Source: an uncultured Dehalococcoidia bacterium (GTDB lineage: Bacteria; Chloroflexota; Dehalococcoidia; DSTF01; RBG-16-68-14). From it: DNA of 64,000 bases. The notes under the pieces are model-generated. The model did no database searches. It was given only the letters and a program-made list of their open reading frames with translations, and was not told the origin of the DNA. The DNA is taken from the NCBI GenBank assembly GCA_964418365.1, contig CAYQLM010000001.1:24490-88489 (forward strand), written 5' to 3'. The position numbers and the translations under genes are program-made. Of the stretch, positions 4,665 through 28,066 are shown piece by piece (within the stretch, counting starts at the first letter, position 1; each line of letters opens with the position of its first letter).

Positions 4665-4665
4665 C

Positions 4666-6734: not shown

Positions 6735-6737
6735 CGC

Positions 6738-8831: not shown

Positions 8832-8880
8832 CTCTTACTCAATAGTTCGGGGCCGTTTACTGAGCGGCCCCGGTACTGTC

Positions 8881-9351: not shown

Positions 9352-9436
9352 CTATATGCTCCGTGGGACAGGCGCCAGCCTGTCGCCTCTCTCTAATCTT
9401 TCCGGACGGCAGGTTTCGGCCCGCCGCGCTCTCCAA

Positions 9437-9468
9437 CGAAAAGTCGCCCCGATAGAACCGGGGCGCCT
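9437..9468 (-). terminator. Terminator-like or attenuator hairpin in the rpsL-rpsG intercistronic region
   Basis: The minus-strand RNA reads GCGCCCCG-GUUCUAUC-CGGGGCGAC followed by UUUUCGUU. A second perfect 7-bp hairpin (GACAGGC-UGGC-GCCUGUC, 9367-9384) sits just upstream of the rpsG SD. Confidence 0.35.
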
Positions 9469-9498
9469 GTGACTGGACGAGGCGCGATTCGAACCTAG

Positions 9499-9930: not shown

Positions 9931-10231
9931 GAAGCCTCTCCTTGGCGCCCTTGTTGAAGACACAGTGAAGGCCAAAAGCCTGTTCCGAAGCCTGACCCGG
10001 CGTGGGAACGAATCCCCACTTGCGCCGGCGGTCATCACGGTCGGGGCCTTTGGCCGCGACTGAAGCTCTTCGATAGGCGCCGAAGGTGAAGTGTAACGGC
10101 CTCTCTATCGAGTGTCAAGCGAATCTGGCTTGCCTGTCGGGTGTTTCACTCAAGGCTGGCCGCGGACGCGCCGATAACTCTTGCGGGACACCCCTACGGA
10201 ACAACCCTCTTCCACAGGAGTAAGAACGCGC

Positions 10232-14129: not shown

Positions 14130-14456
14130 TTAGGGAGCGGGCGTCCGGCGCGGCGAAAGTGCGCCCTGGATCATCAGCGCGCCCGCGATCACGAGCGCGA
14201 TCCCTGCGAACTTCGACCACGCGATGCCCGCCACCGCGCTGCCCGAGCCGGATGCCGGCAGCGTGATCGACTGACGCGGCGGGTGGACGGACACAGGGCC
14301 CAGCTCGGAAACGTACGTCGCGGTCGGTAACGGCGCGGCCGCGACCGATGACGTCTCGCTGAGTGCATGCGAGCTTCCGCCGGCCGCGAGCGAAGCGCCG
14401 ACCGTCACTCCGATGACGGCGAGGAACGTGATAGCGGCGATTGTGGCGAGGCGCAT
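14130..14456 (-). CDS. Small secreted protein with a signal peptide and a C-terminal LPXTG-like sortase sorting signal
   Basis: Internal ATG at 14456 gives MRLATIAAITFLAVIGVTVGASLAAG (signal peptide). The C-terminus has LPASG, a hydrophobic stretch and an RRTPAP tail. The ORF upstream extension to 14753 is probably not translated. Confidence 0.5.
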   Translation of the reverse strand: MRLATIAAITFLAVIGVTVGASLAAGGSSHALSETSSVAAAPLPTATYVSELGPVSVHPPRQSITLPASGSGSAVAGIAWSKFAGIALVIAGALMIQGALSPRRTPAP

Positions 14457-14990
14457 AGCTCCGTAGATAACAAGACCGCCGTCTTCAGCAAGACGGCGGC
14501 TGAAGATCCTCCGAGCGTATCCTCTTCGGTAGCCCGGCTGTCGCTCCTGGAAGTGGAGTCGATCCTGGGGCTTTGCGTGGCCCTTCGCGTGACGGGCCGT
14601 GCCCTTTCGGAGGCTTCTATTCGATTGTTGGGTGGGGCCAGGGGACGCCTGCCAGGCCCCGCCTCCTGAACGCGCGTCCCCTGGGCCCGTAGCCCGATCG
14701 CACCCGCCTAAGGCGGGAGGATCGCTCCAGGAATGGCGAACCATCCCGGCCAAGTGGCTCGCGCTGCGCGCCGGCCCCGGCCTCCTGCTGCCCGGCGGCG
14801 GTCATCGCCTTCAGGGCTTCCCGCCCTGAACTGGACGGTCTACCCGTCCGATAACTCTCTAGGGTGTCTGATCCGACGGCCACCCTTCGCGGACCGGCCG
14901 CGGCGTCGGGTCGGGCCGCATTGTGTCACAGGGTTGGCGATATGTCAAGCGCATCAGCACCCAACGCCTAAAACGGGAGCGCTTTCGGCG

Positions 14991-17072
14991 ATGTTACAGA
15001 CTTCGACGATCCGTCATCGGACCTCCTGGCTACGCGCTGTTCTCGTCGCGCTCTTTGTGCTGGCGTTCACGATTGCCGGCTCACGCGATCTGCTCGCGCA
15101 GCAGCCGACGCCGCTGACCGTCAAGATCAACGGCTTTGCCGGCGGCGACTTGTCGCACGCGCAGGTAGTTGTCACGGTGCTGGACAACGCGGGGCATCCC
15201 CTCTCCGGCCTGACGAAGGACAGCTTTCACGCGCGGCTGAACGACGCTGACGCGATCACGATTGGGCTGAGCCAGGGCGTCGACAGCAGCGTGCCGCTTA
15301 CCGTCGTGCTGGCGATCGACGTCAGCGCCGGTATGGCAGGCCCGGCTATGGAACAGGCGAAGACCGCGGCTGGCGGTTTCGTCGATGGACTGGGGCCGCA
15401 AGATAGCGTCGCTGTGTTCGCGTTCAACGACACGGCGAATCTCGTCCAGCCGTTCACGCAGGATCACGCCGCTGCGCACAACGCCATCGACTTCTTAGGC
15501 GCGACTGGTGGCTCGCAGCTGTACCAGGCGACGCTGCAGAGCATCCTGCAGGCGTCCGCCAGCGCCGACACCGGCCGTCGCGCTGTCGTGCTGCTCAGCG
15601 GCTCCACAGACACGAGCGCGGCGACACCGGACCAGGCGCTGTTCGCTGCGCAGGCGCTCGGCGTACCGATCTTCGACATCGCGGTCGGCACGAGTGTCGA
15701 TAACGAGTATCTACGCAAGCTTGCCGACGTGAGCGGCGGCCAGTTCACGCAGGCATCCGGGCCGGAGGCGCTCGTACCGCTGTACCAGAACCTGGGCGAG
15801 CTGCTGCGCGATCAGTATGTGCTGACGCTCGACGCCTCGGCCGTGCAGCTGGGCAAGTCGCAGCCGGCGACGCTATCGATCACGGCGACCGCGGGCGACA
15901 GCAGCGGCAGCGACCAGCGTGTCGTGTGCCCGCAGCGCCTCTGCGTCACGCTCGACAACATCGCGGCCGGCGACAAGGTGGACGCCGCGCGCATCGTGAC
16001 CGCGAGTGTCGTCGCCACCGATCCGGTGACGTCGGTCACCTTCCTGGTCGATGGCCAGGTGGCGTCCACCGCCACGGCATCGCCGTACCAGTTCACGTTC
16101 GATCCGAAGCAGTACGGCAACGGAAAGCATCTCTTGGCTGCTGAAGTGGCATCGGGAAGCGCCACGGCGCGGACGGATGACGTGCAGATACAGTTGGGAG
16201 CGGCAAAGTCCGGCAGCAAGCTGATCGCCATGGGCGCCCTCGGTGCGCTCGGGCTGGTCGCGGTATTGCTCGTCTTGTTTGTCGTACTCCGTCGTCGTGG
16301 CCGGGGCGAGCGTCCTAAGCCTGTCGCGCCGTCCGACACGCCTAAAGTCGGCCCCATTTTGAAGGGCCGCGGACGGCTGCGCATACTCGAACCCGACGAG
16401 GCGCCGGCGGCGCCCGCCGCTGCAGCGCCCGCTGCGCTGGTGGGGCAGCTCCATGTCACGAGTGGCCCAATGGCGGGCCAGTCCTTCGCGATTGGTAGCA
16501 CGCCTGTCAGCATCGGGTCTGGCCATCGTTGCACGATCCGCCTCCCACGCGATCTCGATGAAGGCGGCGAAATCGCTCCCGAGTTCGCCCGCATCTGGGT
16601 GCGTAACGACCAGCTCATGGTGCACGAGCTGCGCCGGCTGACCGTCGCCGGTCCTGTGGGAGGCCGCTGGGAGATGCTGGAGAACGGTGACACCTTCTCC
16701 ATCGGATCGTGCGCCTTCCGCTTCGAGCTCGGCACGGGCGACGACAAGACAGAGGAAACGAAGCCCGCGGAGCCGCCGCCCGACATCCTCCGCAGCAGGG
16801 AAGGCAGCGATGCCTGGCCGGCCGCGTCTGCGACCTTCGCGGCACCGGCGCTACAGGCACCGGCGCAGCGCGCGCAAGAGCTTGCCGTAGAACCGCCGCC
16901 GGACATCTTCCGCAAGAGAGAACAGTCCGCTGCCGCGGCCTCATCCTCGGACACTCCGCCCTTGCCGACGCCGTTGCCCAGCGCTCAGAAGCAGGAGCTC
17001 GAGAACGGCCAGGGGAGGCAGGCGGAGGATTCGGGCCCCGATAGCCCCCCTCAGGCCGCCGCCGCCCCTTAG
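14991..17072 (+). CDS. Single-pass membrane protein: signal peptide, extracellular VWA domain, Ig-like region, TM, cytoplasmic FHA domain, Pro-rich tail
   Basis: VWA MIDAS motif (VVLAIDVSAGM) and TM (LIAMGALGALGLVAVLLVLFVVL). FHA-like region (GQLHVTSGP...SIGSGHRCTIRL...RIWVRNDQLMVHEL...NGDTFSIGSCAFRFE). Tail carries two EPPPDI(L/F)RxRE motifs. Start ATG 14991; the ORF extends up to 14733. Confidence 0.75.
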   Translation: MLQTSTIRHRTSWLRAVLVALFVLAFTIAGSRDLLAQQPTPLTVKINGFAGGDLSHAQVVVTVLDNAGHPLSGLTKDSFHARLNDADAITIGLSQGVDSSVPLTVVLAIDVSAGMAGPAMEQAKTAAGGFVDGLGPQDSVAVFAFNDTANLVQPFTQDHAAAHNAIDFLGATGGSQLYQATLQSILQASASADTGRRAVVLLSGSTDTSAATPDQALFAAQALGVPIFDIAVGTSVDNEYLRKLADVSGGQFTQASGPEALVPLYQNLGELLRDQYVLTLDASAVQLGKSQPATLSITATAGDSSGSDQRVVCPQRLCVTLDNIAAGDKVDAARIVTASVVATDPVTSVTFLVDGQVASTATASPYQFTFDPKQYGNGKHLLAAEVASGSATARTDDVQIQLGAAKSGSKLIAMGALGALGLVAVLLVLFVVLRRRGRGERPKPVAPSDTPKVGPILKGRGRLRILEPDEAPAAPAAAAPAALVGQLHVTSGPMAGQSFAIGSTPVSIGSGHRCTIRLPRDLDEGGEIAPEFARIWVRNDQLMVHELRRLTVAGPVGGRWEMLENGDTFSIGSCAFRFELGTGDDKTEETKPAEPPPDILRSREGSDAWPAASATFAAPALQAPAQRAQELAVEPPPDIFRKREQSAAAASSSDTPPLPTPLPSAQKQELENGQGRQAEDSGPDSPPQAAAAP

Positions 17073-17175
17073 GCCCCCACGTTCCGTCGCAAGCCAAGCC
17101 CTCTAGCGCCCAGGCGCTCCTGCCGAACCTTACCTGGGGACGATTTCGACTCACCCAATTGCGAACGACAAGCTT

Positions 17176-17775
17176 ATGGCACTTGCCACACCGAACATCG
17201 AAGAAGCCAGCCTCGTGCGCCGCGCCATTATGCGCGACCGCGAGGCGTTCGGCGAGCTGTACGACCGGCACGTCGTGCGCGTCTACCGGCACATCTACTA
17301 CCTCGTCGGCAACGCGGCCGAGGCGGAAGACCTCACGGCGCAGGCGTTCCTGCAAGCCTGGGAGGCGATCGACCGCTATCAGATGCGTGGTGCGCCCTTC
17401 GTTTCGTGGCTGCTGCGCATCGCGCACAACCTGGCCGTGAGCCACCTGCGGTCACGCAAGGACCGCTCGGAGCTGCCGGACACGCTGGTGGACCACAGCC
17501 GCCTGGGCAATCCGGAGGAAATGGTCCAGCAGACCGCGGAAGGTGAGCGCGTTCGCGCTGCGATTCTGCGCCTGCGCGAAGAGCAGCGTCAGGTGATCAT
17601 GCTGCGCTTTGTCGAGGACCTCGAGTACCCGGAAGTGGCGGAGATCGTCGGGAAGAGCGTCGCGGCCGTACGCGTCATCCAGCACCGCGCGCTCAACGCG
17701 CTGCGAAAGCAGATCGGAAACGAGCCCACGCCGGTGCGCCACCGCAGAGCGACTCGTTTCTCAGCCTCCGGTTAG
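17176..17775 (+). CDS. ECF-type RNA polymerase sigma factor (sigma-70 regions 2 and 4)
   Basis: 199 aa; region 2 (YRHIYYLVGNAAEAEDLTAQAFLQAW) and region 4 (EQRQVIMLRFVEDLEYPEVAEIVGKSVAAVRVIQHRAL). Confidence 0.88.
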   Translation: MALATPNIEEASLVRRAIMRDREAFGELYDRHVVRVYRHIYYLVGNAAEAEDLTAQAFLQAWEAIDRYQMRGAPFVSWLLRIAHNLAVSHLRSRKDRSELPDTLVDHSRLGNPEEMVQQTAEGERVRAAILRLREEQRQVIMLRFVEDLEYPEVAEIVGKSVAAVRVIQHRALNALRKQIGNEPTPVRHRRATRFSASG

Positions 17776-17776: not shown

Positions 17777-19030
17777 CTACGCGGCGTACGCCTGCTGCGG
17801 CGCCTTCTCCGTTTCGCTCGACGTCGCGATGCTCTCCTGCGCTGGCCAACGGAACGACACGCAGAGATAGCCCGCGAGCACGAAGAAGCCCGTCAGCGAT
17901 AGCCCCTGGATCGCGATCACGGGCAGGACGAACAGCAGCGTAAACGATAGGAGCAGCGCGTTCGTCGCGCGCCGCGTCGCTTCGACGCTCGAGTTCGCCG
18001 TAAGGTACGCGCGCAGCGCAAGCGTCGCGGGTAACAGCATGAGCACCAGGCTCTGCGTGTGTACGTGTGGCGAAGCGATCAGCGGCAGCAGCACCGCGAT
18101 GCTGTAGTCGCGTTCGAGCGAGCCGCTGGCCCGCCAGCGCGCCACCGCGACCGCGATCGCGCCCGCCGCGATGATCGCGGAGCCCGGCGCCCAGTAGACT
18201 AGCCTGTCGCTGTTCGTCGCGCTGACGATGAAGCCCCGCCAGTTGGCCATGAACTGCGCATTCACCGTCAGCCGTCCGCCTGAGCCGTACGTGGCCAACT
18301 CCTTCACGTTGTCGAACAGCGTCGATGGGGCGGTCAGCAAGGCCGGGACGATCAGGAGCGCTAGGCCGGCACACGCCAGCGTTCCCAGCGTCCGCCAATC
18401 ACGTCGCAGTAGTAACAGGAGTACGACGCCGATCAAGAAGTGCGGCTTTATGAGCACGAGGCACAGGGTCAGGCCGGCGAGCACGCGTCGATCTGCGCGC
18501 AGGAGCAGGTAGCCGCCCAGCAGGCCAGCCAGCGCGACAAGATCGACCTGGCCGAAAACGATCGTCGCGAGCGAGGGCATGGCGAAGGCGGCGCAGGCGA
18601 GAAACAGCCAGCGCACACGCCCGGGAAGGTCTTTGAGCTCCTCGCCGAGCAGCCGGAGCAGGCCGCCTAGCAGGCAGGCCATCAGTGACATGTAGAGGGA
18701 GAACGCGGCCGTGAAAGGCAACCGCGATAGCGGCGCGAAGAGCCAGGCGGCGAAGACGGGCAGGGGGTAGCCGATCGCCTCGTCGAAGCCGCCCGGGTAC
18801 AGGTGGCGCTGGGTCGCTTCGATGGCCGCGGGATCGTAGAGGTGGGCGCCATGGCCCGTTCGAACGAGGAATCCCGCGGCGTAGAACGACAGGAAATCGC
18901 CGGTGGCGCCGTAGGCGTTCGTCGCGATGTGCTGGAGGACCGTCCCGAAGATGGCGATACTGCCGGCGGCGGCGATCGCGGCCGCCGCGGAGAGCGCCAC
19001 CGTCAGGGCCGAGAACTCTCGGAGCTTCAC
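17777..19030 (-). CDS. Polytopic membrane glycosyltransferase-like protein (DUF2029/GT87-like)
   Basis: 417 aa, about 10 TM segments, motif TNAYGATGDFLSFYAAG typical of DUF2029 mannosyltransferase-like proteins. Confidence 0.55.
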   Translation of the reverse strand: MKLREFSALTVALSAAAAIAAAGSIAIFGTVLQHIATNAYGATGDFLSFYAAGFLVRTGHGAHLYDPAAIEATQRHLYPGGFDEAIGYPLPVFAAWLFAPLSRLPFTAAFSLYMSLMACLLGGLLRLLGEELKDLPGRVRWLFLACAAFAMPSLATIVFGQVDLVALAGLLGGYLLLRADRRVLAGLTLCLVLIKPHFLIGVVLLLLLRRDWRTLGTLACAGLALLIVPALLTAPSTLFDNVKELATYGSGGRLTVNAQFMANWRGFIVSATNSDRLVYWAPGSAIIAAGAIAVAVARWRASGSLERDYSIAVLLPLIASPHVHTQSLVLMLLPATLALRAYLTANSSVEATRRATNALLLSFTLLFVLPVIAIQGLSLTGFFVLAGYLCVSFRWPAQESIATSSETEKAPQQAYAA

Positions 19031-19247
19031 CTCCCTAGCATCGACTCACCTTCATCTTACGGGCAGTCTGCGAAGCCCCTATCGGCCGGAGTTCGAGTCT
19101 GGAGCCGCATGTCTTTCGACCCCTTCAGATGGGCTAGGGGTTTACCGATGATGTCATCAGGGAACACACGTAAGGGAATGCCCGGCGAACATGGCGCTCC
19201 TAGAGCGGCCCGCGTCGGAGTCTGGAGAAGGGAAAGGAGGACAACGA

Positions 19248-19463
19248 ATGCAACTGCTCAACGAAGCGCTGCTGCGTATCCTCACCGGTTGGCACGGGCT
19301 TCAGGCTCGGGCGCAGGATGAGGAAGGGCAGACCCTGGCGGAGTACGGCCTGATTATGGCCGTCATCGCCGTGGCGGTCGTGGTTCTTGCGGTGACCGTG
19401 TTCCGCAACGCGATCGTGGGTGCCTTCAACGGCGCCGTCGACTGTCTAGACGGAAGCTGCTAA
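19248..19463 (+). CDS. flp: Flp-family type IVb prepilin, copy 1
   Basis: Leader MQLLNEALLRILTGWHGLQARAQDEEG, then QTLAEYGLIMAVIAVAVVVLAV (Flp G/xxxxEY motif). ATG 19248 with a GGAAAGGAGG Shine-Dalgarno. The ORF N-terminal extension from 19191 is unlikely. Confidence 0.85.
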   Translation: MQLLNEALLRILTGWHGLQARAQDEEGQTLAEYGLIMAVIAVAVVVLAVTVFRNAIVGAFNGAVDCLDGSC

Positions 19464-19479
19464 CCAGCAGCGGATTAGT

Positions 19480-19515
19480 GAAGAAGGGCCCCGCTCTGCA
19501 GCGGGGCCCTTCTTC
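19480..19515 (+). terminator. Rho-independent terminator after flp copy 1
   Basis: Perfect 15-bp stem GAAGAAGGGCCCCGC-tctgca-GCGGGGCCCTTCTTC, then TTCTGG. Confidence 0.7.
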
Positions 19516-19746
19516 TTCTGGCAAGCTGCTGTTCCGAAATATGGATGTCAATTTCCACATTCCATGTTCGTGAAAGATGTCGCAAGCCGATACTAGCACT
19601 AGGAGTAGACATGTAGCCTTCGGCGGTAAGCACAAGGATGGTGCGTAACGGTTCGCCACCGAAGACTGTTCCAACTATTGGACGCCCGGCGATAAGACGG
19701 AGATTCCTCCGCCCGTCGGAGCCTGTGAAGGAGGGAGGGCAAACAT

Positions 19747-19962
19747 ATGCAACTGCTGAATGAAGCCCTGCTCCGCATCCTCACTGGGTGGCACGGGCTC
19801 CAGGCTCGGGCCGAGGACGAGGATGGGCAGACGCTGGCAGAGTACGGCCTCATTATGGCCGTCATCGCCGTGGCGGTTGTCGTCCTGGCCGTGACCGTGT
19901 TCCGCAACGCGATCGTAGGGGCCTTCAACGGCGCCGTCGACTGTCTAGACGGAAGCTGCTAA
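19747..19962 (+). CDS. flp: Flp-family type IVb prepilin, copy 2 (tandem paralog)
   Basis: 71 aa, identical mature region. Two conservative leader differences (Q to E, E to D). GGAGGGAGGG Shine-Dalgarno. Confidence 0.85.
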   Translation: MQLLNEALLRILTGWHGLQARAEDEDGQTLAEYGLIMAVIAVAVVVLAVTVFRNAIVGAFNGAVDCLDGSC

Positions 19963-19993
19963 GCGCAGCCATCCCGCGAACATGCGACCGCGC

Positions 19994-20020
19994 GGAGGGG
20001 GTCCCCTTCGGGACCCCTCC
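19994..20020 (+). terminator. GC-rich hairpin after flp copy 2 (terminator-like, no U-tract)
   Basis: GGAGGGGGTCCC-cttc-GGGACCCCTCC. Confidence 0.4.
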
Positions 20021-20170
20021 GGCGGCAACGCCAGGAGACTCGTCCTCGGCTGGGGCGGGCCTTATAAAGCCCGACTCGAATCCGACCGATACATCTCATA
20101 GGCCTGCATAAGGCCGAAGGCTCTATCTCATTCGATAGGCCGAGTATTCCACTGGTAGCGAGGGAAGCGC

Positions 20171-21010
20171 ATGGCTCAGACAATCACGACCGCTGCAGTT
20201 AGTCGAGTAAACCGCCGGTTTCTGCTCCTGGCCATCGTACTGGCCATCTTGAGTGCGGTGCTGGTCTACGCCCAGCTCTCTCACTCGGGCTCCAATAGCA
20301 GCAGCAGCTCGGGCGGCGGCGATGTGTCCGTTGTCGTGGCGAAGGCCGCGGTTCCGGCCGGGACACGGATCACGGCAGACATGGTCGAAATTCGCTCGTT
20401 CGGCCAGAATGACGTGGGCTTTCAGGCCCTGACCGCAAGCGAGCAGGCTGTCGGACAGGTCGCGCGCTATCCGATCGCCGCGGGCGAGCAAGTGCTGTCG
20501 TCGAAGCTCGTCGACACAACGGTCTCGTCCAGCAGCAACCTCGCCTTCGTCCTCCAAAACGGCATGCGCGGCGTCGCGATGCACGTCGACCCCGTGACGG
20601 CCGCCGGCGGGCTCGTGTTGCCGGGCGATCACGTGGATGTGCTGTGGATCCCGTTCAAGGCCGCGCCCGTATACATCATGCTCTCGGACGTCGAAGTGAC
20701 CGCGGTAAGCCAAACCGTTGTCGATGTGGCGCCCGCGGCTCCTGGTCTGCAAAAGGACCCGAACGCACCGCAGACGGGCAATCGTACGCGCATCTCGGAA
20801 GGCAACCCTGACCCGGCGGCGGACACTGTGACGTTCATGGTGTCGCCGGAACAAGCAATGTCGCTGATCTGCGGCACGAGCATTGCGCAGGCGTATGGCG
20901 GGACCATCAGCCTGTCAGTGCGGAGCTTCGGCGACACGGCCCCGCTGGCGGTCAATGCGCCGCCTTGTCCGCCGACGGAGCTGATGCGACAGCTGGGGAT
21001 CATTCAGTAG
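20171..21010 (+). CDS. cpaB: Flp pilus assembly protein CpaB/RcpC (SAF domain)
   Basis: 279 aa, N-terminal TM (FLLLAIVLAILSAVLVYA), SAF-like VAKAAVPAGTRITADMVEIRSF. Confidence 0.8.
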   Translation: MAQTITTAAVSRVNRRFLLLAIVLAILSAVLVYAQLSHSGSNSSSSSGGGDVSVVVAKAAVPAGTRITADMVEIRSFGQNDVGFQALTASEQAVGQVARYPIAAGEQVLSSKLVDTTVSSSSNLAFVLQNGMRGVAMHVDPVTAAGGLVLPGDHVDVLWIPFKAAPVYIMLSDVEVTAVSQTVVDVAPAAPGLQKDPNAPQTGNRTRISEGNPDPAADTVTFMVSPEQAMSLICGTSIAQAYGGTISLSVRSFGDTAPLAVNAPPCPPTELMRQLGIIQ

Positions 21011-21049
21011 CGCGTAGCAACACGCGAAGACGCGGAGAGGCAGGAGACC

Positions 21050-22243
21050 GTGCCACGCGACCCTGAAATCATCATTGTCGACCCCGACCTCGATACTCGG
21101 GCCGACCTGAAGCATATGCTCGGGCTCGCGAAGCTGGCGGTCGTGGGCGAGGCGGACTACGGCATCGAGGCTGCCACCGTCTCCCAGGAGCACCCGCCGG
21201 ACGTCTTCCTCATCAGCATGGAGGAGCCGGCCGCCCGCGCGATCCAGACAGTGGAGATGCTCGGCTCGGTGGCGCCGCGCGCGGCGATCATTGTCTACTC
21301 CTCGTTGACGGATGCGGCGTCGGTCCGCCGCGCGATGGTGGCCGGGGCGCGTGACTATTTGATCAAGCCTCTCCGTCCCGAAGACGTCAGCCGCGCCGTT
21401 TACGGCATCCTCGAGCAGGAGGAGCGCCGCCGGCTTCAAACGGAAGGCGACCACAGCGAGGCGGTCGCGCACGGCACCGTGGTTACCATCTTCGGTGCGA
21501 AGGGTGGCATTGGAAAGACCACCATCGCGACCAACCTCTCGGCCGCGCTCGTGAACACGACGCAGTCGAACGTGGCGCTGGTCGACATGGACACACGCTT
21601 CGGCGACGTCGCCATCATGATGGACATCGCCGTGGAACATAGTATCGCCGACCTGGGCCGGCGAATCGACTCTCTGGACCGCGAGTCGATCAAGGACAGC
21701 CTCGCGCGGCACCACACCGGCGTTTCGATCCTGCCGGCGCCGCTGCACCCGACGGAGTGGCGTGACCTGACGCCGCAGCACATCGAGCGGATCGTCGACT
21801 TGCTGGCCCAGGGCTATGACTGGGTCGTCATCGACACGCCCGGGACGTTCAACGAGATCATCGCCGCGACGCTGGAGATCGGCGACATCATCCTGCTGGT
21901 CACCAGCATGGACATCGCCAGCATCAAGGACACGGCTCTGGCGCTAGAGATGCTGCGAGCAGCCGATGTATCAGAAGACAAAGTGAAGCTGGTCATCAAC
22001 CACTCCACATCGGCGAACAGCCTGCGTGAGGAGGATGTGGAGCGGGTGCTGGAGTACAAAGTGACCTGGCGCATTCCGCACGATTACAACGTGGCAAGCG
22101 CGAACCAGCTCGGCATTCCTATCGTAACGGCGAAGCCGTACGCTCGTGTGTCGCGCGCCATTGTGGATATGGCCTATGACCTTACGGGCGTTTCCAGAGA
22201 GCGAAAGGGCTTCCTGGAGCGGTTCCTGGGCCGGGCCTCGTAA
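21050..22243 (+). CDS. tadZ: Flp pilus assembly protein TadZ/CpaE (receiver-like N-domain plus ParA/MinD-like ATPase)
   Basis: 397 aa, GTG start, deviant Walker A (IFGAKGGIGKTTIATNLS), MinD fold. Confidence 0.85.
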   Translation: MPRDPEIIIVDPDLDTRADLKHMLGLAKLAVVGEADYGIEAATVSQEHPPDVFLISMEEPAARAIQTVEMLGSVAPRAAIIVYSSLTDAASVRRAMVAGARDYLIKPLRPEDVSRAVYGILEQEERRRLQTEGDHSEAVAHGTVVTIFGAKGGIGKTTIATNLSAALVNTTQSNVALVDMDTRFGDVAIMMDIAVEHSIADLGRRIDSLDRESIKDSLARHHTGVSILPAPLHPTEWRDLTPQHIERIVDLLAQGYDWVVIDTPGTFNEIIAATLEIGDIILLVTSMDIASIKDTALALEMLRAADVSEDKVKLVINHSTSANSLREEDVERVLEYKVTWRIPHDYNVASANQLGIPIVTAKPYARVSRAIVDMAYDLTGVSRERKGFLERFLGRAS

Positions 22244-22273
22244 CACAACTCAGGGAAAGAAGGTTAGCGAGAG

Positions 22274-23623
22274 ATGAGTCAATTCTCGTGGCACCCACGA
22301 AGCGGAAGCGGAACTGAAACTCCGGAGCGGCCGTTCCAGCGGCGCAGCCAGAGCGTCGAGGCCGTCAATGAGCTGAAGTTCACGCTGCACCAGCGCCTCA
22401 TCGAGGAGCTGGACCCGACCAAGCTCCAGGGGCTGGAGCCGGATCGCGCGCGCGACGCTGTCGTCGCCGCCGCGCGATCGCTCATCGCTCAGGAGATGCC
22501 GGGCATCGTCGGCGCCGTGCGCGACGAGCTCGTGCAGTCGGTCGCGGACGAAGTGCTGGGCCTCGGCCCGATCGAACCGTTGATCAGGGACGTAGCCGTC
22601 TCAGAAGTGATGGTCAACGCCCCCGATCAGGTCTTCTATGAGAAGGAAGGCCGGCTCTATCTGAGCTCCGTTCGCTTCCGCGATCAGGCGCACATCATGC
22701 GCATCGTCGAGCGCATCGTGGCGCCCCTTGGCCGTCGTGTGGATGAATCGTCGCCTATGGTGGACGCTCGTTTGCCCGATGGCTCCCGCGTGAACGTCAT
22801 CATCCCGCCTGTCGCGCCGAAGAGCCCGACGATCACCATCCGGAAGTTCCAGGCCGACAAGATGACGATCGAGGACCTGATCGGCATCGGCAGCTTGACG
22901 CGCGAGCTGGCGGAGTTCTTCCGGGCCTGCGTACAGGTGCGGCTGAACATCATTGTCTCCGGCGGTACCGGCACCGGCAAGACGACCATGCTGAACGCAC
23001 TCTCGTCCTTCATTCCAGACACCGAGCGCATCGTCACCATTGAGGACCCGACGGAGCTCAGGCTCCAGCAGGGCCACGTCGTGAGCCTTGAGGCGCGGCC
23101 ACCCAGCCTGGAGGGCAAGGGTGAGGTGACGCAGCGAGACCTAGTCCGCAATTCGCTACGTATGCGCCCCGACCGCATCATCGTCGGTGAGGTGCGCGGC
23201 GCGGAATCCTTCGACATGATGCAGGCGATGAACACCGGCCACGAAGGATCGCTCGGCACGGTGCACGCCAACACGCCCCGAGACGCCCTCGCCCGTATCG
23301 AGAACATGGTCCTGATGGCCGGGCTCGATCTGCCGATGCGCGCGATCCGCGAGCAGATCTCTTCCGCGATCCACATCGTCACCCAGCTCACCAGGATGGC
23401 CGACGGGACGAGAAAGGTCACGCACGTATCCGAGATCGCCGGCATGGAGGGCGACATCGTGACGATGCAGGACCTGTTTCGGTACGAACAGCGTGGTGTG
23501 GACAGCGACGGCCGTGTCATCGGTGAGTTCCGCGCGACGGGAATCCGCCCGCGCTTCGCAGAGAAGTTCGAAGTAGCCGGCATCCGGCTGCCGCCGGACA
23601 TGTTCATGCCGGGAAGGCTGTAA
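22274..23623 (+). CDS. tadA: Tad secretion ATPase TadA/CpaF (VirB11-like)
   Basis: 449 aa, Walker A (VSGGTGTGKTTMLNAL), Walker B/Asp box; His box region HTGHEGSLGTVHAN. Confidence 0.92.
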   Translation: MSQFSWHPRSGSGTETPERPFQRRSQSVEAVNELKFTLHQRLIEELDPTKLQGLEPDRARDAVVAAARSLIAQEMPGIVGAVRDELVQSVADEVLGLGPIEPLIRDVAVSEVMVNAPDQVFYEKEGRLYLSSVRFRDQAHIMRIVERIVAPLGRRVDESSPMVDARLPDGSRVNVIIPPVAPKSPTITIRKFQADKMTIEDLIGIGSLTRELAEFFRACVQVRLNIIVSGGTGTGKTTMLNALSSFIPDTERIVTIEDPTELRLQQGHVVSLEARPPSLEGKGEVTQRDLVRNSLRMRPDRIIVGEVRGAESFDMMQAMNTGHEGSLGTVHANTPRDALARIENMVLMAGLDLPMRAIREQISSAIHIVTQLTRMADGTRKVTHVSEIAGMEGDIVTMQDLFRYEQRGVDSDGRVIGEFRATGIRPRFAEKFEVAGIRLPPDMFMPGRL

Positions 23624-23626
23624 GCC

Positions 23627-24595
23627 ATGGACCCAATCGCGCTCTTAACCGCCGCTTCGGTCCTCGTGGCCGTCCTCTCGTTCGGCCTGGCGTTTGCTAC
23701 CACGCCGGTGAGCGCGCAGATGCGCGCTCGCCTCCACGGCGTGCTCGCCGCTCAGACCGGCATCGCTGACCGCGGCGCCTCGGACGCGCCGCTGCGGGCG
23801 CGCCGCGGGCTTGGCGTGTTCCAAACGCTCATCTCTGGTGGCTGGCTGGCGCGGATGGAGACAGACCTTCGCCTGGCGGACAGTCGGCTCCACCCGGGCG
23901 ATTACCTCGCGCTGCGGGTCGGGGTGGCAGGACTGGGCTTTGTCGCGCCGTTTCTCGCCCTCGGCGGGGGGATGGGCCTCATTCTCGGAATCATCGCCGG
24001 CGCGGCCGGGTTCCAGGTGCCACAGTTCTGGATCGGCAACCGAAAGGCCAGCCGCGCCAGGAAGCTGGAGGCCCAGCTCCCGGAAGCGCTCACGATGGTG
24101 GCGAACTCGCTCAAGGCCGGCTTTGGCTTGCTGCAGGCGCTCAGCCTTGCCGCAGAGCAACTCGAACATCCGGTCAGCACGGAGCTCGCGCAGGCCGTGC
24201 AGGAGACGAACATCGGCTCCAGCGTGGAGGAAGCATTCCGTCAGCTCAGCGAACGGAATGGCAACTACGATCTCGACATGGTGGTGACCGCGATCATGGT
24301 GCAGCGGACGGCTGGCGGTAACCTGTCCGAGATCCTGGAGACGGTCACCGCAACCATGCGCGAACGCGTGCGCATCAAGGGCGAGATCCAGACGCTTACC
24401 GCGCAGCAGAAGCTGACGGGAATCGTCATCGCGCTGCTGCCGGTAGGGGTGGCTGGCTTGTTCGTTGTGATCAGCCCGGAATACATCAAGCCTTTGTTCA
24501 CGGACCCGCTGGGCCGGGTCATGCTGGGCGTGAGTACCTTCCTTGAAGTCATCGGCGTGCTCGTGATCCAGAAGATCCTGTCAATCGAGGTGTAG
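23627..24595 (+). CDS. tadB: Tad inner-membrane platform protein TadB (T2SS F domain)
   Basis: 322 aa, GspF-like domain, TM segments. Confidence 0.82.
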   Translation: MDPIALLTAASVLVAVLSFGLAFATTPVSAQMRARLHGVLAAQTGIADRGASDAPLRARRGLGVFQTLISGGWLARMETDLRLADSRLHPGDYLALRVGVAGLGFVAPFLALGGGMGLILGIIAGAAGFQVPQFWIGNRKASRARKLEAQLPEALTMVANSLKAGFGLLQALSLAAEQLEHPVSTELAQAVQETNIGSSVEEAFRQLSERNGNYDLDMVVTAIMVQRTAGGNLSEILETVTATMRERVRIKGEIQTLTAQQKLTGIVIALLPVGVAGLFVVISPEYIKPLFTDPLGRVMLGVSTFLEVIGVLVIQKILSIEV

Positions 24596-24600
24596 GCGTC

Positions 24601-25506
24601 ATGCCAATGCTTGCCGCGCTAGTCTTCGCTTCCGCTGTCTTCGTATTCGTCCTGTCCTTTAGTGGCGGCGAAGCGCGCATTCGCTCTCGCCTCCAGGCGC
24701 TGCGCGGCCCCGACGTGCATGACCAGTCACGCGAGGCGCTCACGCTGAAGCAGCGCATGTTTCTGCCCATCACGGACGGCATCATGCAGTCTGTGTCGCG
24801 CTACCTGCCGTCCGGCGTCATGTCGCGCATGGAGGAGAAGCTGGTGATCGCTGGCGAGCCGATGTCGGCGAACACGTTCATGGCCGTCCGGCTGATCTGC
24901 TTCGCGTTGCTGGCGGGTCTGCCCGTGCTGCTGCTTACGGCCGGCATGATCAAGCTGAGCATGACGGGCATCGTCTTCATCGGGGCATTTACGGTAGCCG
25001 GGATCATGCTGCCCACCGTGTGGCTGTCGCAGCGCGTAGGGCAGCGTCAGAGCACGATCATCAAGAGCCTACCCGATGCCTTCGATCTCATCACGACATG
25101 CGTGGAGGCTGGCCTCGGACTGGACGCCGCGCTCGCCCGCGTCGCGGACAAGGTCGAGGGCCCGTTCGCCGATGAGCTATCGAGGGCGTTGCGCGAGATC
25201 GGTCTCGGCAGGATGCGCCGTGAAGCGCTACGCGAGCTCGGTTCGCGCACTGGCGTGCCCGACCTGATCACGTTTGTCAACGCCGTGATTCAGGCTGAAC
25301 TTATGGGCTCCAGTGTCGGTGCGGTGTTGCGCGTACAGGCGGAACAGCTTCGCATGCGCCGCCGCCAGCGCGCGGAGGAGCAGGCCTACAAGGCGCCGGT
25401 AAAGATGATCTTCCCCCTTGTGCTCTTCATCTTCCCGACGCTCTTCATCGTCATCTTGGGCCCGGCCATGATCACGATCATGAAGGACTTTCCTGGCGGG
25501 AAGTAG
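24601..25506 (+). CDS. tadC: Tad inner-membrane platform protein TadC (T2SS F domain)
   Basis: 301 aa, second GspF-like paralog directly after tadB. Confidence 0.82.
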   Translation: MPMLAALVFASAVFVFVLSFSGGEARIRSRLQALRGPDVHDQSREALTLKQRMFLPITDGIMQSVSRYLPSGVMSRMEEKLVIAGEPMSANTFMAVRLICFALLAGLPVLLLTAGMIKLSMTGIVFIGAFTVAGIMLPTVWLSQRVGQRQSTIIKSLPDAFDLITTCVEAGLGLDAALARVADKVEGPFADELSRALREIGLGRMRREALRELGSRTGVPDLITFVNAVIQAELMGSSVGAVLRVQAEQLRMRRRQRAEEQAYKAPVKMIFPLVLFIFPTLFIVILGPAMITIMKDFPGGK

Positions 25507-25515
25507 CCGGCTGGC

Positions 25516-25860
25516 GTGCGGATAACCAACCAGACGAAGGGGACGGAGCTGGCGAGCGCTGCTCGCGTCGCCCGCAGCCTCTCGTCTCGAACCATTGGCT
25601 TGCTTGGCAAGCGCGCGTTGCCTCAGGGTGAGGCGCTCGTCATCGATCCCTGTTCGTCGGTTCACACCGCCTTCATGCGCTTCACGATTGACGTCCTGTA
25701 CCTGGACCCGTCGAAGCGTGTCATCAAGGCCGTCGCGGATCTGAAGCCGTTCCGCATCAGCGGCGTCCTGCGCGGCAAGTGTTCGGTGATCGAGCTGCCG
25801 CGGGGCGCTATCGCCGCGAGCAACACTGCCCCCGGCGACCAGCTCGCCTTCGATTCCTAG
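25516..25860 (+). CDS. DUF192 (COG1430) domain protein
   Basis: 114 aa, GTG start; motif RTIGLLGKRAL...GEALVIDPCSSVHTAFMRFTIDVLYLD typical of DUF192. Confidence 0.65.
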   Translation: MRITNQTKGTELASAARVARSLSSRTIGLLGKRALPQGEALVIDPCSSVHTAFMRFTIDVLYLDPSKRVIKAVADLKPFRISGVLRGKCSVIELPRGAIAASNTAPGDQLAFDS

Positions 25861-25870: not shown

Positions 25871-28066
25871 CTAGCGAGTGCAGCTGACGTTGTACTCACT
25901 GATCGAGATCCGGATATCGATTACGGTGACGGTTCCGTCGCTGTTTAAGTCCGCCCGCGGATCGTCCATGCGGTGGTAGTGCTGGAGTACATAGATGATG
26001 TCGTTGATCGTCACCTTGCCGTTGCCGTCGAAGTCGGCGCAGGGCCAGGGCATCGGCGTCGGCGTCGGGGTGATCGTCGGTGTCGGCGTGATGGTCGGCG
26101 TGTTGGTGATCGTCGGCGTGTTGGTCGCCGTGAACGTGGGCGTCGGCGTCGGAGCGAGGATGAGGGTCTGCACCTGGGCGATATTGTTGGCGTATGACGA
26201 CTCCGGCGCGACATTGGTTACGAGCAAGCGGTTGGCCGCGGCTGAAGCCGTTAGGGTCGTATCGGAGGACACGGCGACGCGCCCGCTCAACGTGATCGTC
26301 GCCCTGTCATTCGGATGGAACGTTCCAGGGAAGGAGCAACTGAGCGTGCCCGTGGAAACGATGACGCACGTACCGCAAAAGAGCCCGCCGCCGGTAAGCG
26401 TGATGCAGGTACCGGTGAAGTCCGTTGTAAAGGTGGCGATGACGAGGCTTGGGGCATACTGCACGAGCGCTTCGATGAAATATGGCCGGCCGGTCGTCGG
26501 GTTGATGTCATTCACAACGTCGAGCCCGCCAATGTTCGTAACAGCGGCGGTATAGGTGAATATGGATCCGCTTGGTACTGGGTTTTGACTAACGTCCATG
26601 GTCGCCGCCAGATCGCCTGGGGGTGGCGCCGGCGTTGGGCTGGGCGTCGGTGTTCTTGTAGGCGTGGGCGGCGGGGAGACCGTGATCGAGGCCTGGGCAT
26701 CGTTGTTCGCCTCACTGAACTCAGCTACCTCATCAAACGGATCGACGGTGGCCGAATCCACAAAGACGCCCTCCTGCGTCATGTAGCCGCCGATCGTGAC
26801 CGTGGCCACCCCGCCTGCCGGCAGCGCGCCCAGATCGCAGTCCAGCTCTCCGCCAGTCAGAGACCCCAGCAGCGTGCAACTTCCAGCCGAAGCCGAGAAC
26901 GATGTATAGACGAAGTCAACGGGCGGGTTGTGCGCCAGCCGCACCGGCGCCACGGCTTGGCCGCCCACGTTGCGCACCTGGACCGTAAGCGTAAGCGGAT
27001 CGTTGCCTCGAACGGGGTTCGGAGTGGGGACGATCGTTACGGTCAGGTCGCCAGTGAGCGGCGTGGGTGTGAACGTAGCGGTAACCGTAGGCGTATTGGT
27101 CGGCGTGGCGGTCGATGTCGGCGTGCGGGTCGCCGTCGGCGTGCCAGGCGTCGGTGTTCGCGTGGCCGTGCGGGTCGATGTCGCCGTATCCGTAACTGTC
27201 GCCGTGGGCGTTGCCGTGGGCGCCAGCACCTGCGTCGTCGCTAGGGACGTGTTATTCGCCTCGTTCGACTCCGTCACGATGTTGTTAGGGTCGACGGTCG
27301 CCGTGTTCGTGACATTCGTGTCGACGCCTGCCGCGACGTAGCCGGTGACCGTCACCGTCGCGATGGCGCTCGGCCCCGTGCCGAAGGCGCCGAGGTCGCA
27401 GTCCAGCAGGCCGCCGGTGACGCCGTTCCTGAGCGAGCAGGCGCCACGCGTTGTGCTGAAGCCGGTGTACGTGAAATTGGCCGAGGGCTGGTCGATCAGG
27501 CGGACCGCGCTCGCGGGGGCGTTGCCCAAGTTGCGCACCTTGAGGGTGTAGTTCAGTGGCGCCCCGCCCACTACCGGGTCCGGGCTGTCTGTCGTCGTCA
27601 CGATCAAATCGACTCCGTTTGCCAGTGTCGCGGTCGGGGTGAAGGTGTTGGTCGGCACGGGCGTGAAGGTGTTCGTGGGCACGGGCGTGTTGGTAGCCGT
27701 AGGTGTGAATGTGTTGGTCGCCGTCGGCGTAAAGGTATTCGTTGGTGTTGGCGTAAGGGTGTTGGTCGGCGACGGCGTGAAGGTGTTGGTCGGTGAAGGC
27801 GTGAAGGTGTCGGTTGGCGTTGGGGTGAGAGTGTCGGTCGGCGACGGCGTGAAGGTGTCGGTTGGCGTTGGGGTGAGAGTGTCGGTTGGCGTTGGGGTGA
27901 GAGTGTCGGTCGCCGTTGCCGTCTCGGTGGGAGTATCCGTCTCACCCAGCGCCATGCCAGGGCGGGACGGCTGGCTGGACAGGGCGACGAGGGACACGGC
28001 AACGAGCGCGCCCACGAGGAGGCCCGCCACGATGCCCAGCCTGAGGTGTGGCAGCGCCCGACTCAT
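25871..28066 (-). CDS. Secreted protein with DUF11-type repeat domains, Thr/Pro linkers and a C-terminal dockerin-like module
   Basis: 731 aa with a signal peptide. Two DUF11-like repeats ([20 protein letters not shown]..., [20 protein letters not shown]...). The C-terminus has paired Ca-loop-like motifs ([40 protein letters not shown]). Confidence 0.75.
27798..27925 (-). repeat. Tandem 48-bp coding repeat (about 2.7 units) encoding a [16 protein letters not shown] linker
   Basis: Near-identical units GGCGTGAAGGTGTCGGTTGGCGTTGGGGTGAGAGTGTCGGTCGGCGAC on the plus strand. Confidence 0.8.

Follow-up and report, generated by a model that had tools for sequence, protein, structure and literature searches.

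Results

Gene content of the locus

The window, that is, the whole 64-kb stretch of DNA that was analysed, carries eight genes on the plus strand between positions 19248 and 25860, in the order flp, flp, cpaB, tadZ, tadA, tadB, tadC and DUF192. This is the order given in the original prediction, and all eight genes were identified by Pfam. The start of the locus had been placed at 19191; however, flp1 most likely begins at 19248, with the Shine-Dalgarno sequence GGAAAGGAGG upstream, and the ATG at 19191 falls inside a conserved putative 5'-UTR hairpin. The operon ends with the DUF192 gene because the next gene (25871-28066) is convergent. The locus and its upstream neighbours have the following features.

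14733..17072, plus strand: membrane protein with a signal/TM segment, VWA, Big_7, a second TM segment and an FHA-like cytoplasmic tail
17176..17775, plus strand: ECF-type sigma-70 family factor (Pfam Sigma70_r2, Sigma70_r4)
17777..19030, minus strand: GT87-family membrane glycosyltransferase, inserted between the sigma factor gene and flp (Pfam GT87, E 1.4e-25)
19121..19153, plus strand: promoter-like motif CCCTTCAG-N16/17-CCGAYRATG, about 95 nt upstream of flp1
19180..19222, plus strand: conserved putative 5'-UTR hairpin GCCCGGCG ... CGYCGGAGC, just upstream of the flp ribosome-binding site, read by eye from the sequences
19248..19463, plus strand: flp1, 71-aa Flp prepilin (Pfam Flp_Fap, E 2e-7; 31 bits, slightly below the gathering score of 32.2)
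19480..19518, plus strand: behind flp1, a terminator-like GC-rich hairpin with a T-rich tract at its 3' side (terminator scan match at 19493-19507, longer arms visible)
19747..19962, plus strand: flp2, second 71-aa Flp prepilin (Pfam Flp_Fap, E 1.8e-7; likewise 31 bits, below the gathering score)
20171..21010, plus strand: cpaB/rcpC, SAF and RcpC domains behind an N-terminal TM segment (Pfam RcpC, E 1e-16; SAF, E 1e-11)
21050..22243, plus strand: tadZ/cpaE, atypical receiver domain fused to a ParA/MinD-type ATPase (Pfam Response_reg, AAA_31, CbiA, ParA)
22274..23623, plus strand: tadA/cpaF secretion ATPase (Pfam T2SSE, E 3e-71)
23627..24595, plus strand: tadB platform protein, 322 aa (Pfam T2SSF, E 1e-19)
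24601..25506, plus strand: tadC platform protein, 301 aa (Pfam T2SSF, E 6e-21)
25516..25860, plus strand: DUF192 gene, 114 aa, without signal peptide or TM segment, starting 9 bp after tadC

Among the components that define a Tad/Flp (type IVc) system, the Flp pilin, TadA/CpaF ATPase, TadB and TadC paralogues, TadZ/CpaE and CpaB/RcpC are present, and an A24 peptidase (TadV/CpaA), TadE/TadF/TadG, and the RcpA/CpaC secretin with the TadD pilotin are absent from the window. The 20171-21010 product is a CpaB equivalog according to NCBIfam pilus_cpaB (131.6 bits against a cut-off of 71). In TadZ the position of the phospho-acceptor Asp is replaced (DVFLISMEEP), and the ATPase motif KGGIGKT is present. 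TadA has an intact Walker A motif (GTGKTT) and other intact ATPase motifs; its best NCBIfam match is the TadA-family model TIGR03819, with 333.6 bits, under the cut-off of 373. The two Flp prepilins differ by 2 residues, and 194 of 216 nucleotides of their genes are identical. The flp1 product consists of a 27-aa leader, the cleavage motif G/QTLAEY and a 44-aa mature peptide with C-x5-C at its end; the motif EDEDG/QTLAEYGLIMAVIAVAVVV is present, with a hydrophobic mature N-terminus.

Components absent from the window

The original prediction held that TadV/CpaA, TadE/F/G, RcpA/CpaC and TadD are not encoded within 10 kb. This absence extends to the whole window. A Pfam scan of 59 candidate ORFs, which covered ORFs of about 80 aa or more outside the ribosomal-protein operon at 531-9351, gave no match to Peptidase_A24, TadE, Tad (PF13400), Secretin or TadD-like families, and neither a TPR lipoprotein nor a secretin was found in the window by Pfam. 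For A24, TadE and TadG, and for these three only, the remainder was covered by tblastn of the whole window with queries from related loci (A24 from Chloroflexota), which gave no match at E<=1e-3. Pseudopilins (TadE, TadG) likewise had no tblastn match in the related loci L001-L009 or L011. In the A24 search no match was attributable to any genome bearing the trimmed locus, and no minor pilin was located for those genomes either. The G/XXXXEY cleavage motif is intact in every Flp orthologue compared; since this canonical site is kept, a peptidase is probably encoded elsewhere.

Conservation of the trimmed locus

The closest relatives of the locus are found in Chloroflexota/Dehalococcoidia MAGs. 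The trimmed layout, composed of the VWA membrane protein, ECF sigma factor, flp, cpaB, tadZABC and DUF192, occurs in at least five of these related MAGs, and its ORFs are intact in L001, L003/L008, L005, L006, L009 and L011. Amino acid identity to L008, L009 and L011 is 82-87% for TadA, 63-73% for Flp and 58-63% for DUF192. The trimmed gene set is kept across several species-level lineages; it is a maintained variant, not a product of decay. Together with the Chloroflexota/Dehalococcoidia relatives, the missing secretin and TadD and a small LPXTG-like sortase-substrate gene near the locus, this conservation supports the earlier reading of a monoderm-type or divergent Tad system. Absence of the secretin and TadD is what would be expected of a monoderm lineage, and we did not count it against membership of the monoderm subtype.

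The upstream region is also conserved. The VWA membrane protein (Pfam VWA, E 7e-13; Big_7, E 1e-8; weak NCBIfam match to FhaB_Rv0019c at residues 557-608) probably starts near 14991 (MLQTS...), and its gene precedes the sigma factor gene and flp in L001, L003/L008, L006, L009 and L011. By synteny, the ECF sigma gene immediately upstream of flp is kept in all trimmed loci, which makes its product a candidate regulator of flp. The GT87 insertion is present in this species and in L006 and absent from L001 and L003. The promoter-like motif occurs once in the window (0 matches in 100 shuffles) and has a single copy, equivalently placed, in each of L001, L003/L008, L005, L006, L009 and L011.

The DUF192 protein

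The Pfam match of the last gene product to DUF192 (PF02643) scores 57.5 bits against a cut-off of 27 and spans profile positions 3-95 of 96. The structure model shows, with confidence, the DUF192 beta-sandwich fold of the solved UPF0127 structures 3pjy (Sinorhizobium) and 3m7a (Novosphingobium), although its sequence is only 19% identical to theirs. None of the relatives of this fold is characterised, and it does not resemble PilZ or any other known pilus regulator. The protein has no hydrophobic N-terminus, and the first beta-strand of the model begins at residue 2. In dozens of loci the DUF192 gene starts 0-50 bp from the stop codon of the upstream tadA or tadC, or overlaps it by 4 bp, so there is no room for a signal peptide. 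Sequence, model and gene spacing indicate that DUF192 at this locus is cytoplasmic, which makes it a candidate for an accessory or a regulator of the motor rather than for a part of the fibre or the envelope.

We propose a Tad-linked cytoplasmic DUF192 subfamily of about 107-130 aa, without a signal peptide, whose genes immediately follow tadC, tadA or another tad gene. Conserved signature residues of the Tad-linked proteins are N5, A19, R25, G28, L29, H50, F53-F56, I58-V60, P78, E93, G97, G107 and D108. The protein in the window agrees with this description in its length, its lack of a signal peptide and the position of its gene. The depositors of 3pjy labelled it 'hypothetical signal peptide protein', and a DUF192 protein of Haloferax is a Sec-processed glycoprotein (PMC8241124). 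Therefore at least some DUF192 proteins are exported, in contrast to the cytoplasmic Tad-linked subfamily.

Linkage of DUF192 to Tad genes

We inspected 80 loci, which are the closest DUF192 relatives of the query in GTDB species genomes and were not drawn at random from the family. In 53 of them DUF192 follows tadC (30) or tadA (23) at a distance of no more than 600 bp, often with a 4-bp overlap; about 63 are pilus-linked when TadG-like, A24 peptidase and distant or divergent Tad neighbours are added. The remaining homologues (about 17) lie away from pilus genes and include a WOR-3 cluster beside subtilases and some deltaproteobacterial genes. The Tad-adjacent homologues of this set span about seven phylum-level groups (Chloroflexota, Omnitrophota, Planctomycetes, Geomonas and Myxococcota, Bdellovibrionales, Bacillota and Acidobacteria), and the linkage is kept although the gene order takes two different forms. 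In a second, independent set of annotated sequences, all five plasmid matches inspected were in a pilus context (Streptomyces, Alkaliphilus, Moraxella). The linkage was also remarked, in passing, in Bulleidia and Helcococcus in a 2025 paper (PMC12786226). The suggestion that DUF192 recurs at the ends of tad operons is thus well founded. DUF192 is a strong candidate for an unrecognised part or regulator of the pilus machine; the missing signal peptide and the stop-codon overlaps argue against a fibre or envelope part. A TadC-like gene was found on 247 plasmids and this DUF192 on only 13. Since most plasmid Tad loci do without it, DUF192 is not a core component.

Natural fusions suggest that DUF192 serves as a regulator or adaptor. 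In one Tad locus DUF192-PAS-PAS-GAF-HD-GYP immediately follows T2SSF-T2SSF-Peptidase_A24, and DUF192-TPR is the first gene product of a Flp-RcpC-secretin locus. There is also a REC-LuxR-DUF192 fusion, and another DUF192 with a REC-like tail adjoins a histidine-kinase-like gene.

Other DUF192-bearing Tad loci have an A24 peptidase and TadE/TadG, and TadE/Tad-type minor pilins are present in L010, L028, L082 and L087. Because these parts coexist with DUF192 elsewhere, the idea that DUF192 stands in for the missing Tad parts was rejected. One MAG (CAYOSF01) has, besides L008, which is of the trimmed kind, another Tad locus, L010, with TadE and TadG; each locus has its own DUF192. From this arrangement we infer that the missing parts are probably supplied in trans.

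Discussion

We think it fairly probable that the locus is a functional, conserved, trimmed Tad (Flp) operon of the monoderm type in a Chloroflexota/Dehalococcoidia-like bacterium, and that DUF192 acts on the cytoplasmic side of the machine as an accessory module for docking or regulation. The two near-identical Flp prepilins would have a promoter of their own, probably recognised by the neighbouring ECF sigma factor, and would be cut after the Gly of the cleavage motif by an A24 prepilin peptidase whose gene lies in another part of the genome. Polymerisation would take place on the TadB/TadC platform with power from the TadA ATPase, TadZ would act as the positioning ATPase and CpaB as a membrane/wall-spanning adaptor. 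A secretin and TadD would be unneeded because there is no outer membrane, and the TadE/F/G minor pilins may be borrowed from a second Tad locus or be dispensable. DUF192 is a small soluble cytoplasmic beta-protein, and the genes of its subfamily accompany those of the Tad motor in many phyla; it may dock on or regulate TadA/TadZ or TadB/TadC and couple assembly to cellular signals. We liken this role to that of the adaptors that regulate type IVa pilus ATPases. Adaptors and regulators of the PilZ/FimX type are small cytoplasmic proteins that are encoded with the extension ATPase or act on it, and they are linked to cyclic-di-GMP. The analogy would be functional only: they share no sequence or fold similarity with DUF192, and the counterpart clue is the DUF192-HD-GYP fusion in a Tad locus.

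Monoderm Tad loci include tad2003 of Bifidobacterium breve, Rv3654c-3660c of Mycobacterium tuberculosis and tad of Micrococcus luteus. They share Flp, TadZ, TadA, TadB and TadC with the present locus and likewise are not known to encode a secretin or TadD. The prepilin peptidase TadV of B. breve is encoded away from its tad locus, an arrangement like the one that we infer here. These three loci have TadE/TadF-type pseudopilins and no known DUF192, whereas the present locus has CpaB, two flp genes, no pseudopilins, a terminal DUF192 and an upstream pair of VWA-membrane-protein and ECF-sigma genes. With the diderm Tad/Cpa systems (Aggregatibacter tad, Caulobacter cpa and Pseudomonas aeruginosa tad/rcp) it shares Flp, CpaB/RcpC, TadZ/CpaE, TadA/CpaF and TadB/C, the G/XXXXEY motif and a TadZ/CpaE made of an atypical receiver and a ParA-like ATPase; however, it lacks the RcpA/CpaC secretin, TadD, TadV/CpaA and TadE/F/G. 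We know of no DUF192 in the model loci of Aggregatibacter, Caulobacter and P. aeruginosa. Some diderm Tad loci, those of a Moraxella bovis plasmid and L095, do carry it. A 13-gene monoderm tad operon from a different phylum has, as here, a DUF192 protein of about 112 aa at its 3' end with a fold matching 3pjy/3m7a, but it also has tadV, TadE, TadF, TadG and a terminal coiled-coil protein (PMC12786226).

DUF192 may instead regulate the tad operon at the level of transcription or signalling, acting as a sensor or partner-switch on the sigma factor or on HTH regulators and not by docking on the motor. We regard this as unlikely, although several observations point to it: the REC-LuxR-DUF192 fusion, the two XRE-type HTH genes that flank DUF192 in L028, the REC-like-tailed protein beside a kinase-like gene, the ECF sigma factor conserved in the trimmed loci, and the title 'putative transcription regulator' that the depositors gave to 3pjy. 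However, DUF192 lacks a DNA-binding motif, no regulator gene adjoins it in most of the loci that carry it, and its tightest and commonest coupling, 4-bp overlaps included, is to tadA and tadC. Still more doubtful is a role in maturation, in which DUF192 would serve as a chaperone for prepilins or work with the prepilin peptidase at the cytoplasmic membrane face, for example by holding the amphipathic Flp leader. The leader here is long (27 residues), and an A24 peptidase gene lies directly before DUF192 in the Alkaliphilus plasmid, L039, L079 and L093. Yet the trimmed loci retain DUF192 with no peptidase nearby, DUF192 of Omnitrophota is coupled to tadZ-tadA far from the pilin genes, and the fusions found join it to signalling domains and never to peptidase or pilin domains. 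It is very improbable that the trimmed locus is non-functional for want of a peptidase and minor pilins, a paralogue of a complete Tad system that is decaying or has fallen silent, with DUF192 only hitch-hiking: A24, TadE, TadF and TadG are absent from the 64 kb and a related MAG has a second, fuller locus, but the seven machine genes and DUF192 are intact at 58-87% amino acid identity across L008, L009 and L011, gene order, promoter-like motif and putative UTR hairpin are kept in these and in L001, L005 and L006, the TadA catalytic motifs are intact, and hitch-hiking does not explain the linkage in unrelated phyla and different gene orders.

In many bacteria, Tad pili are the drivers of adhesion and biofilm formation, of colonisation and predation, and of the uptake of DNA. 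To our knowledge, the list of Tad parts (Flp, TadV, TadZ, TadA, TadB/C, TadE/F/G, RcpA/B/C and TadD) is considered essentially complete. To an accessory DUF192 at this locus we add, more tentatively, the wider proposal that the cytoplasmic DUF192 subfamily may be an unrecognised, widespread accessory of Tad/type IVc systems in monoderms and diderms of roughly ten phylum-level groups, docking on TadA/TadZ-TadB/C and serving as an input for signals such as cyclic-di-GMP. Carriers that can be cultured, in which this proposal is directly testable, are Helcococcus, Bulleidia, Streptomyces (on linear plasmids) and Moraxella bovis (on its plasmid). As the trimmed locus of Chloroflexota shows, a monoderm Tad system keeps very few of its parts in the locus itself; this locus also points to a peptidase and minor pilins shared between paralogous loci. 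If the proposal is true, a 20-year-old DUF would receive its first function, DUF192/UPF0127 its first functional context and a well-studied nanomachine a new part, and DUF192 with its fusions to HD-GYP, PAS/GAF or TPR would be a new handle on the control of Tad assembly.

Results

The Tad operon of the window, whose G+C content is 65%, consists of eight tightly spaced genes on the + strand at 19248-25860, which were identified by Pfam and NCBIfam as follows.

19248-19463 and 19747-19962 (+), two Flp pilins
(+), CpaB/RcpC, scoring 131.6 bits with the NCBIfam equivalog (threshold 71)
(+), TadZ/CpaE, receiver domain plus ParA/MinD-type ATPase
(+), TadA/CpaF, T2SSE domain (E 3e-71)
(+), TadB and TadC, two T2SSF platform proteins
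(+), DUF192 protein of 114 aa (57.5 bits, threshold 27)

The order flp, flp, cpaB, tadZ, tadA, tadB, tadC, DUF192 given by the original prediction is correct. Only the start of the locus, placed at 19191, has to be moved: the ATG at 19191 lies inside a conserved 5'-UTR hairpin, and flp1 should begin with the ATG at 19248, preceded by the ribosome-binding site GGAAAGGAGG. The flp1 product from this start has 71 aa and differs from that of flp2 in 2 residues, the nucleotide sequences being identical at 194/216 positions. Both pilins follow the pattern MQLLNEALLRILTGWHGLQARA(Q/E)DE(E/D)G|QTLAEYGLIMAVIAVAVVV...DCLDGSC, in which the leader has 27 residues, the prepilin-peptidase site is the canonical G/XXXXEY, and the mature pilin has 44 residues, with Cys-x5-Cys at its C-terminus. 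The same cysteine pair closes the mature Flp in the window and in the homologous loci L001, L008, L009 and L011 (DCLDGSC) and L010 (NCVDFTASPYSCP). This pair suggests a C-terminal disulfide loop in the Flp pilins of this Chloroflexota group, which to our knowledge is unusual among Flp pilins. The ATPase motifs of TadA are intact. TadZ has the P-loop KGGIGKT and an atypical receiver, in which the position of the acceptor Asp reads ...DVFLISMEEP. DUF192 stands last in the operon, and its neighbour at 25871-28066, encoding a DUF11/CARDB surface protein, is convergent.

Peptidase_A24, TadE, Tad (PF13400), Secretin and a TadD-like lipoprotein were found in none of the 59 candidate ORFs, of about 80 aa or more and spread over the 64 kb outside the putative ribosomal-protein operon (531-9351), that were scanned with Pfam. 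For three families only, A24, TadE and TadG, the coverage is complete: queries from related Chloroflexota Tad loci gave no tblastn match at E<=1e-3 in the whole window. Thus, the absence of peptidase, TadE/F/G, secretin and TadD, which had been proposed for 10 kb around the locus, holds and extends from 19 kb upstream to 38 kb downstream. Secretin and TadD are missing because Chloroflexota generally have no outer membrane.

The closest homologues of the DUF192 protein (58-98% identity) come from Chloroflexi/Dehalococcoidia MAGs. Context look-ups and GTDB loci revealed the recurring order VWA membrane protein, ECF sigma factor, flp (1-2 copies), cpaB, tadZ, tadA, tadB, tadC, DUF192 in L001 (Chloroflexi RBG_16_68_14), L003/L008, L005, L006, L009 and L011, and no match to A24, TadE or TadG was found in any of these trimmed loci. 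TadA of the window is 82-87% identical to those of L008, L009 and L011, and Flp 63-73%.

The non-coding region upstream of flp is also conserved. A bipartite motif, CCCTTCAG-N16/17-CCGAYRATG, occurs a single time in the window and in 0 of 100 shuffles; it is found once per trimmed locus, about 100 nt upstream of flp, and flp2 does not have it.

Positions of the bipartite motif
Window, 19121-19153 (+)
L001, 3889-3921
L003/L008, 4145-4177
L005, 703-735
L006, 3613-3645
L009, 4091-4122
L011, 4184-4215

The motif is probably the flp promoter from which the neighbouring ECF sigma factor directs transcription; the candidate recognition sequence would be CCCTTCAG-N17-CCGATGATG. Between the motif and the ribosome-binding site of flp, a GC-rich hairpin (GCCCGGCG...CGYCGGAGC, 19180-19222, +) was recognized by eye, as were hairpins at the equivalent positions in L001, L008, L009 and L011 and before flp2. 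Translational or stability control by this hairpin is possible.

Other features in the window were as follows.

531-9351 (-), run of short ORFs resembling a ribosomal-protein operon, with an EF-G-sized ORF of 697 aa at 6738-8831
9499-10038 (-), ribosomal protein S12, adjacent to this run and the one ORF here whose identity was confirmed
14139-14456 (-), protein of about 106 aa with a signal peptide, C-terminal LPxxG, hydrophobic segment and basic tail
14733-17775 (+), VWA-Big_7-TM-FHA-like membrane protein and ECF sigma factor
17777-19030 (-), GT87-family polytopic glycosyltransferase, between the sigma factor and flp
25871-28066 (-), Pro-rich DUF11/CARDB protein with a weak dockerin-like end
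36128-38464 (-), 778-aa protein with no Pfam match
50845-51378 (-), stand-alone cyclase domain protein
60632-64000 (-), STAND-type AAA_16-TPR-adenylate/guanylate cyclase protein of >1,121 aa, continuing past the end of the window

The ribosomal-protein-like run and S12 suggest that the Tad locus is core chromosomal, with no obvious mobile element. In every trimmed locus the VWA and sigma factor genes are conserved together directly upstream of flp, and the two may be a module that senses surfaces and regulates the pilus genes; an FHA domain in the VWA protein is indicated only by a weak NCBIfam match (E 1e-4). That this protein is a TadG-like tip pilin was rejected on account of its signal peptide, second TM segment and FHA-like cytoplasmic tail and because it has neither the Tad domain (PF13400) nor a pilin-like N-terminus. 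The small LPXTG-like, sortase-substrate-like surface protein (LPASG in the window, LPSTG in L001) is conserved in divergent orientation upstream of the VWA gene. The glycosyltransferase gene is also present in L006 and absent from L001 and L003. The large ORFs at 25871-28066 and 36128-38464 lie in strong positive GC skew (0.17-0.18), and a large surface-protein gene convergent to DUF192 is conserved in related loci.

The DUF192 protein of the window has no hydrophobic N-terminus. AlphaFold2 with 25 homologues predicted an all-beta domain with two short helices (pLDDT 90, pTM 0.85). Exhaustive HMMER searching gave 7,238 clusters of relatives (50% identity) at E<=1e-3 and 2,328 at E<=1e-10. In an 85-sequence subfamily alignment, N5, A19, R25, G28, L29, H50, F53, M54, R55, F56, I58, D59, V60, P78, E93, G97, G107 and D108 are conserved in at least 90%. 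N-terminal extensions of some representatives were rejected as signal peptides: they lack a hydrophobic core and are Arg/Pro-rich products of wrongly called starts.

With one genome per GTDB species, 590 DUF192 relatives were obtained, and the best 80, taken with 10-kb flanks, were queried with the Tad proteins of the window by tblastn and phmmer. Among these best 80 of 590, the gene on the same strand directly upstream of DUF192 (<=600 bp) was tadC in 30 and tadA in 23; most gaps were <50 bp, and eight were overlaps of 4 bp or 1 bp. Tad genes lay further upstream in five more loci (L039 included) and were divergent in L029 and L073; a TadG-like (PF13400) gene was directly upstream in L034 and L064, and an A24 peptidase in L079 and L039. 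In total, about 63 of the 80 were pilus-linked. Chance linkage to a system of about 7 kb in a multi-Mb genome would be expected in well under 1%.

Two architectures were seen. The order ...tadB-tadC-DUF192 occurs in Chloroflexota, Bacillota, Geomonas, Myxococcota and Bdellovibrionales. In Omnitrophota and Planctomycetes, the order is cpaB...(tadZ-tadA fusion)-DUF192, in which the fusion is one ORF of about 720 aa, DUF192 follows immediately 3', often with a 4-bp overlap, and tadB and tadC are several kb downstream.

Loci with the TadZ-TadA fusion (at about 7800-10000)
L014, L016, L021, L022, L027, L033, L041, L047, L058, L060, L070, L077

In an independent annotated collection, 13 plasmids had a DUF192 homologue, and all five inspected showed a pilus context: cpaF-tadB-tadC-small ORF-TadE-TadE-TadG-LysM protein-DUF192 on three Streptomyces linear plasmids, prepilin peptidase-DUF192 on an Alkaliphilus megaplasmid, and cpaB-secretin-like-ATPase-tadB-tadC-DUF192-TadE-RHS on a Moraxella bovis plasmid. 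Both sets support the recurrence of DUF192 at tad loci that the original prediction had raised. In the same collection a TadC-like gene was on 247 plasmids, so that DUF192 accompanies only a subset of Tad systems.

In the Moraxella bovis locus (L090 3072-14842, NZ_CP087831.1, a diderm), DUF192 is followed by a 333-aa TadE-family protein and, directly after it, a 1,516-aa RHS-repeat toxin-like protein, an arrangement reminiscent of Tad-like contact-dependent killing systems. Unlinked DUF192 genes are in small clusters of their own (beside subtilases in WOR-3, and in some deltaproteobacteria) or on truncated contigs. One of them, in an Ardenticatenaceae MAG (L042 10363-11109, +), precedes a gene for a ComF-like protein, with a double zinc ribbon and a phosphoribosyltransferase domain, which hints at a connection to DNA uptake.

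Discussion

In kind, the Tad operon of the window is an ordinary system; its form, a monoderm one, is conserved and unusually trimmed. Since its ORFs are intact and its gene order and non-coding signals are conserved, the sequences argue for a maintained, expressed system and not a remnant. The proposal of a monoderm-type or divergent Tad system is supported, with refinements, by the trimmed order in Chloroflexota relatives and by the LPXTG-like neighbour at 14139-14456, which fits a monoderm envelope.

Fuller loci exist in the same phylum. A complete Dehalococcoidia Tad locus, L028, has A24 (449-1198, -), two flp, TadE-like, TadG-like, cpaB-tadZABC, HTH and DUF192, and L040, L063, L082 and L087 are similar DUF192-bearing Chloroflexota loci. 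In L028, paralogous XRE-type HTH genes (9553-9930 and 10477-10944, +) lie on either side of DUF192. The MAG CAYOSF01 contains the trimmed L008 and, on a separate contig, the Tad locus L010 with TadE and TadG, each having one DUF192. Most simply, the trimmed system would be a paralogue that depends on a peptidase, and perhaps on minor pilins, from genes at other sites. When a set of 5.8 billion proteins was searched with a Chloroflexota Tad-locus A24, none of the 412 matches was attributable to trimmed-locus assemblies. In Bifidobacterium breve, TadV is encoded apart from the tad locus, so a locus with no peptidase has a monoderm precedent; a total lack of pseudopilin genes is less usual. DUF192 as a stand-in for the peptidase or pseudopilins was rejected, because many DUF192-bearing loci have A24, TadE and TadG.

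DUF192 is genuinely associated with Tad systems over a broad range, and the literature has hardly taken note of it. A 2025 paper on Bulleidia extructa mentions in passing that a 112-aa DUF192, to which it gives no function, is the penultimate gene of the tad operon in that species and in Helcococcus ovis (PMC12786226); beyond this paper, full-text searches yielded neither a connection of DUF192 to pili nor a function. Linkage that survives rearrangement of the locus is good evidence for functional coupling of DUF192 and Tad, and it is very unlikely that DUF192 is a mere passenger.

Being cytoplasmic and coupled in translation to the motor genes, DUF192 is no part of the fibre or envelope. What the original prediction called a candidate pilus component, given recurrence at tad operons, is refined to a candidate accessory part or regulator of the motor. 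The natural fusions are the best clue to this role. P0219, a DUF192-PAS-PAS-GAF-HD-GYP protein in locus L093, occupies the usual place of DUF192, 3' of T2SSF-T2SSF-Peptidase_A24, and P0230, a DUF192-TPR protein, opens the Flp-...-RcpC-secretin locus L095. P0226 is a REC-LuxR-DUF192 fusion, and P0257 has DUF192 with a receiver-like tail and adjoins a kinase-like gene. Because the position in the Tad locus is kept while sensor and output modules are gained, DUF192 behaves like a docking or adaptor module linking the machine to signalling. We tentatively favour the reading that DUF192 is a regulatory adaptor of the TadA/TadZ-TadB/C motor, through which the machine would be connected to signalling. 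That its role is purely transcriptional or signalling appears unlikely beside the motor adaptor, and a prepilin or peptidase maturation factor would be more doubtful still. The association of DUF192 with Tad loci yields a concrete, testable prediction of a new accessory part of Tad machines.
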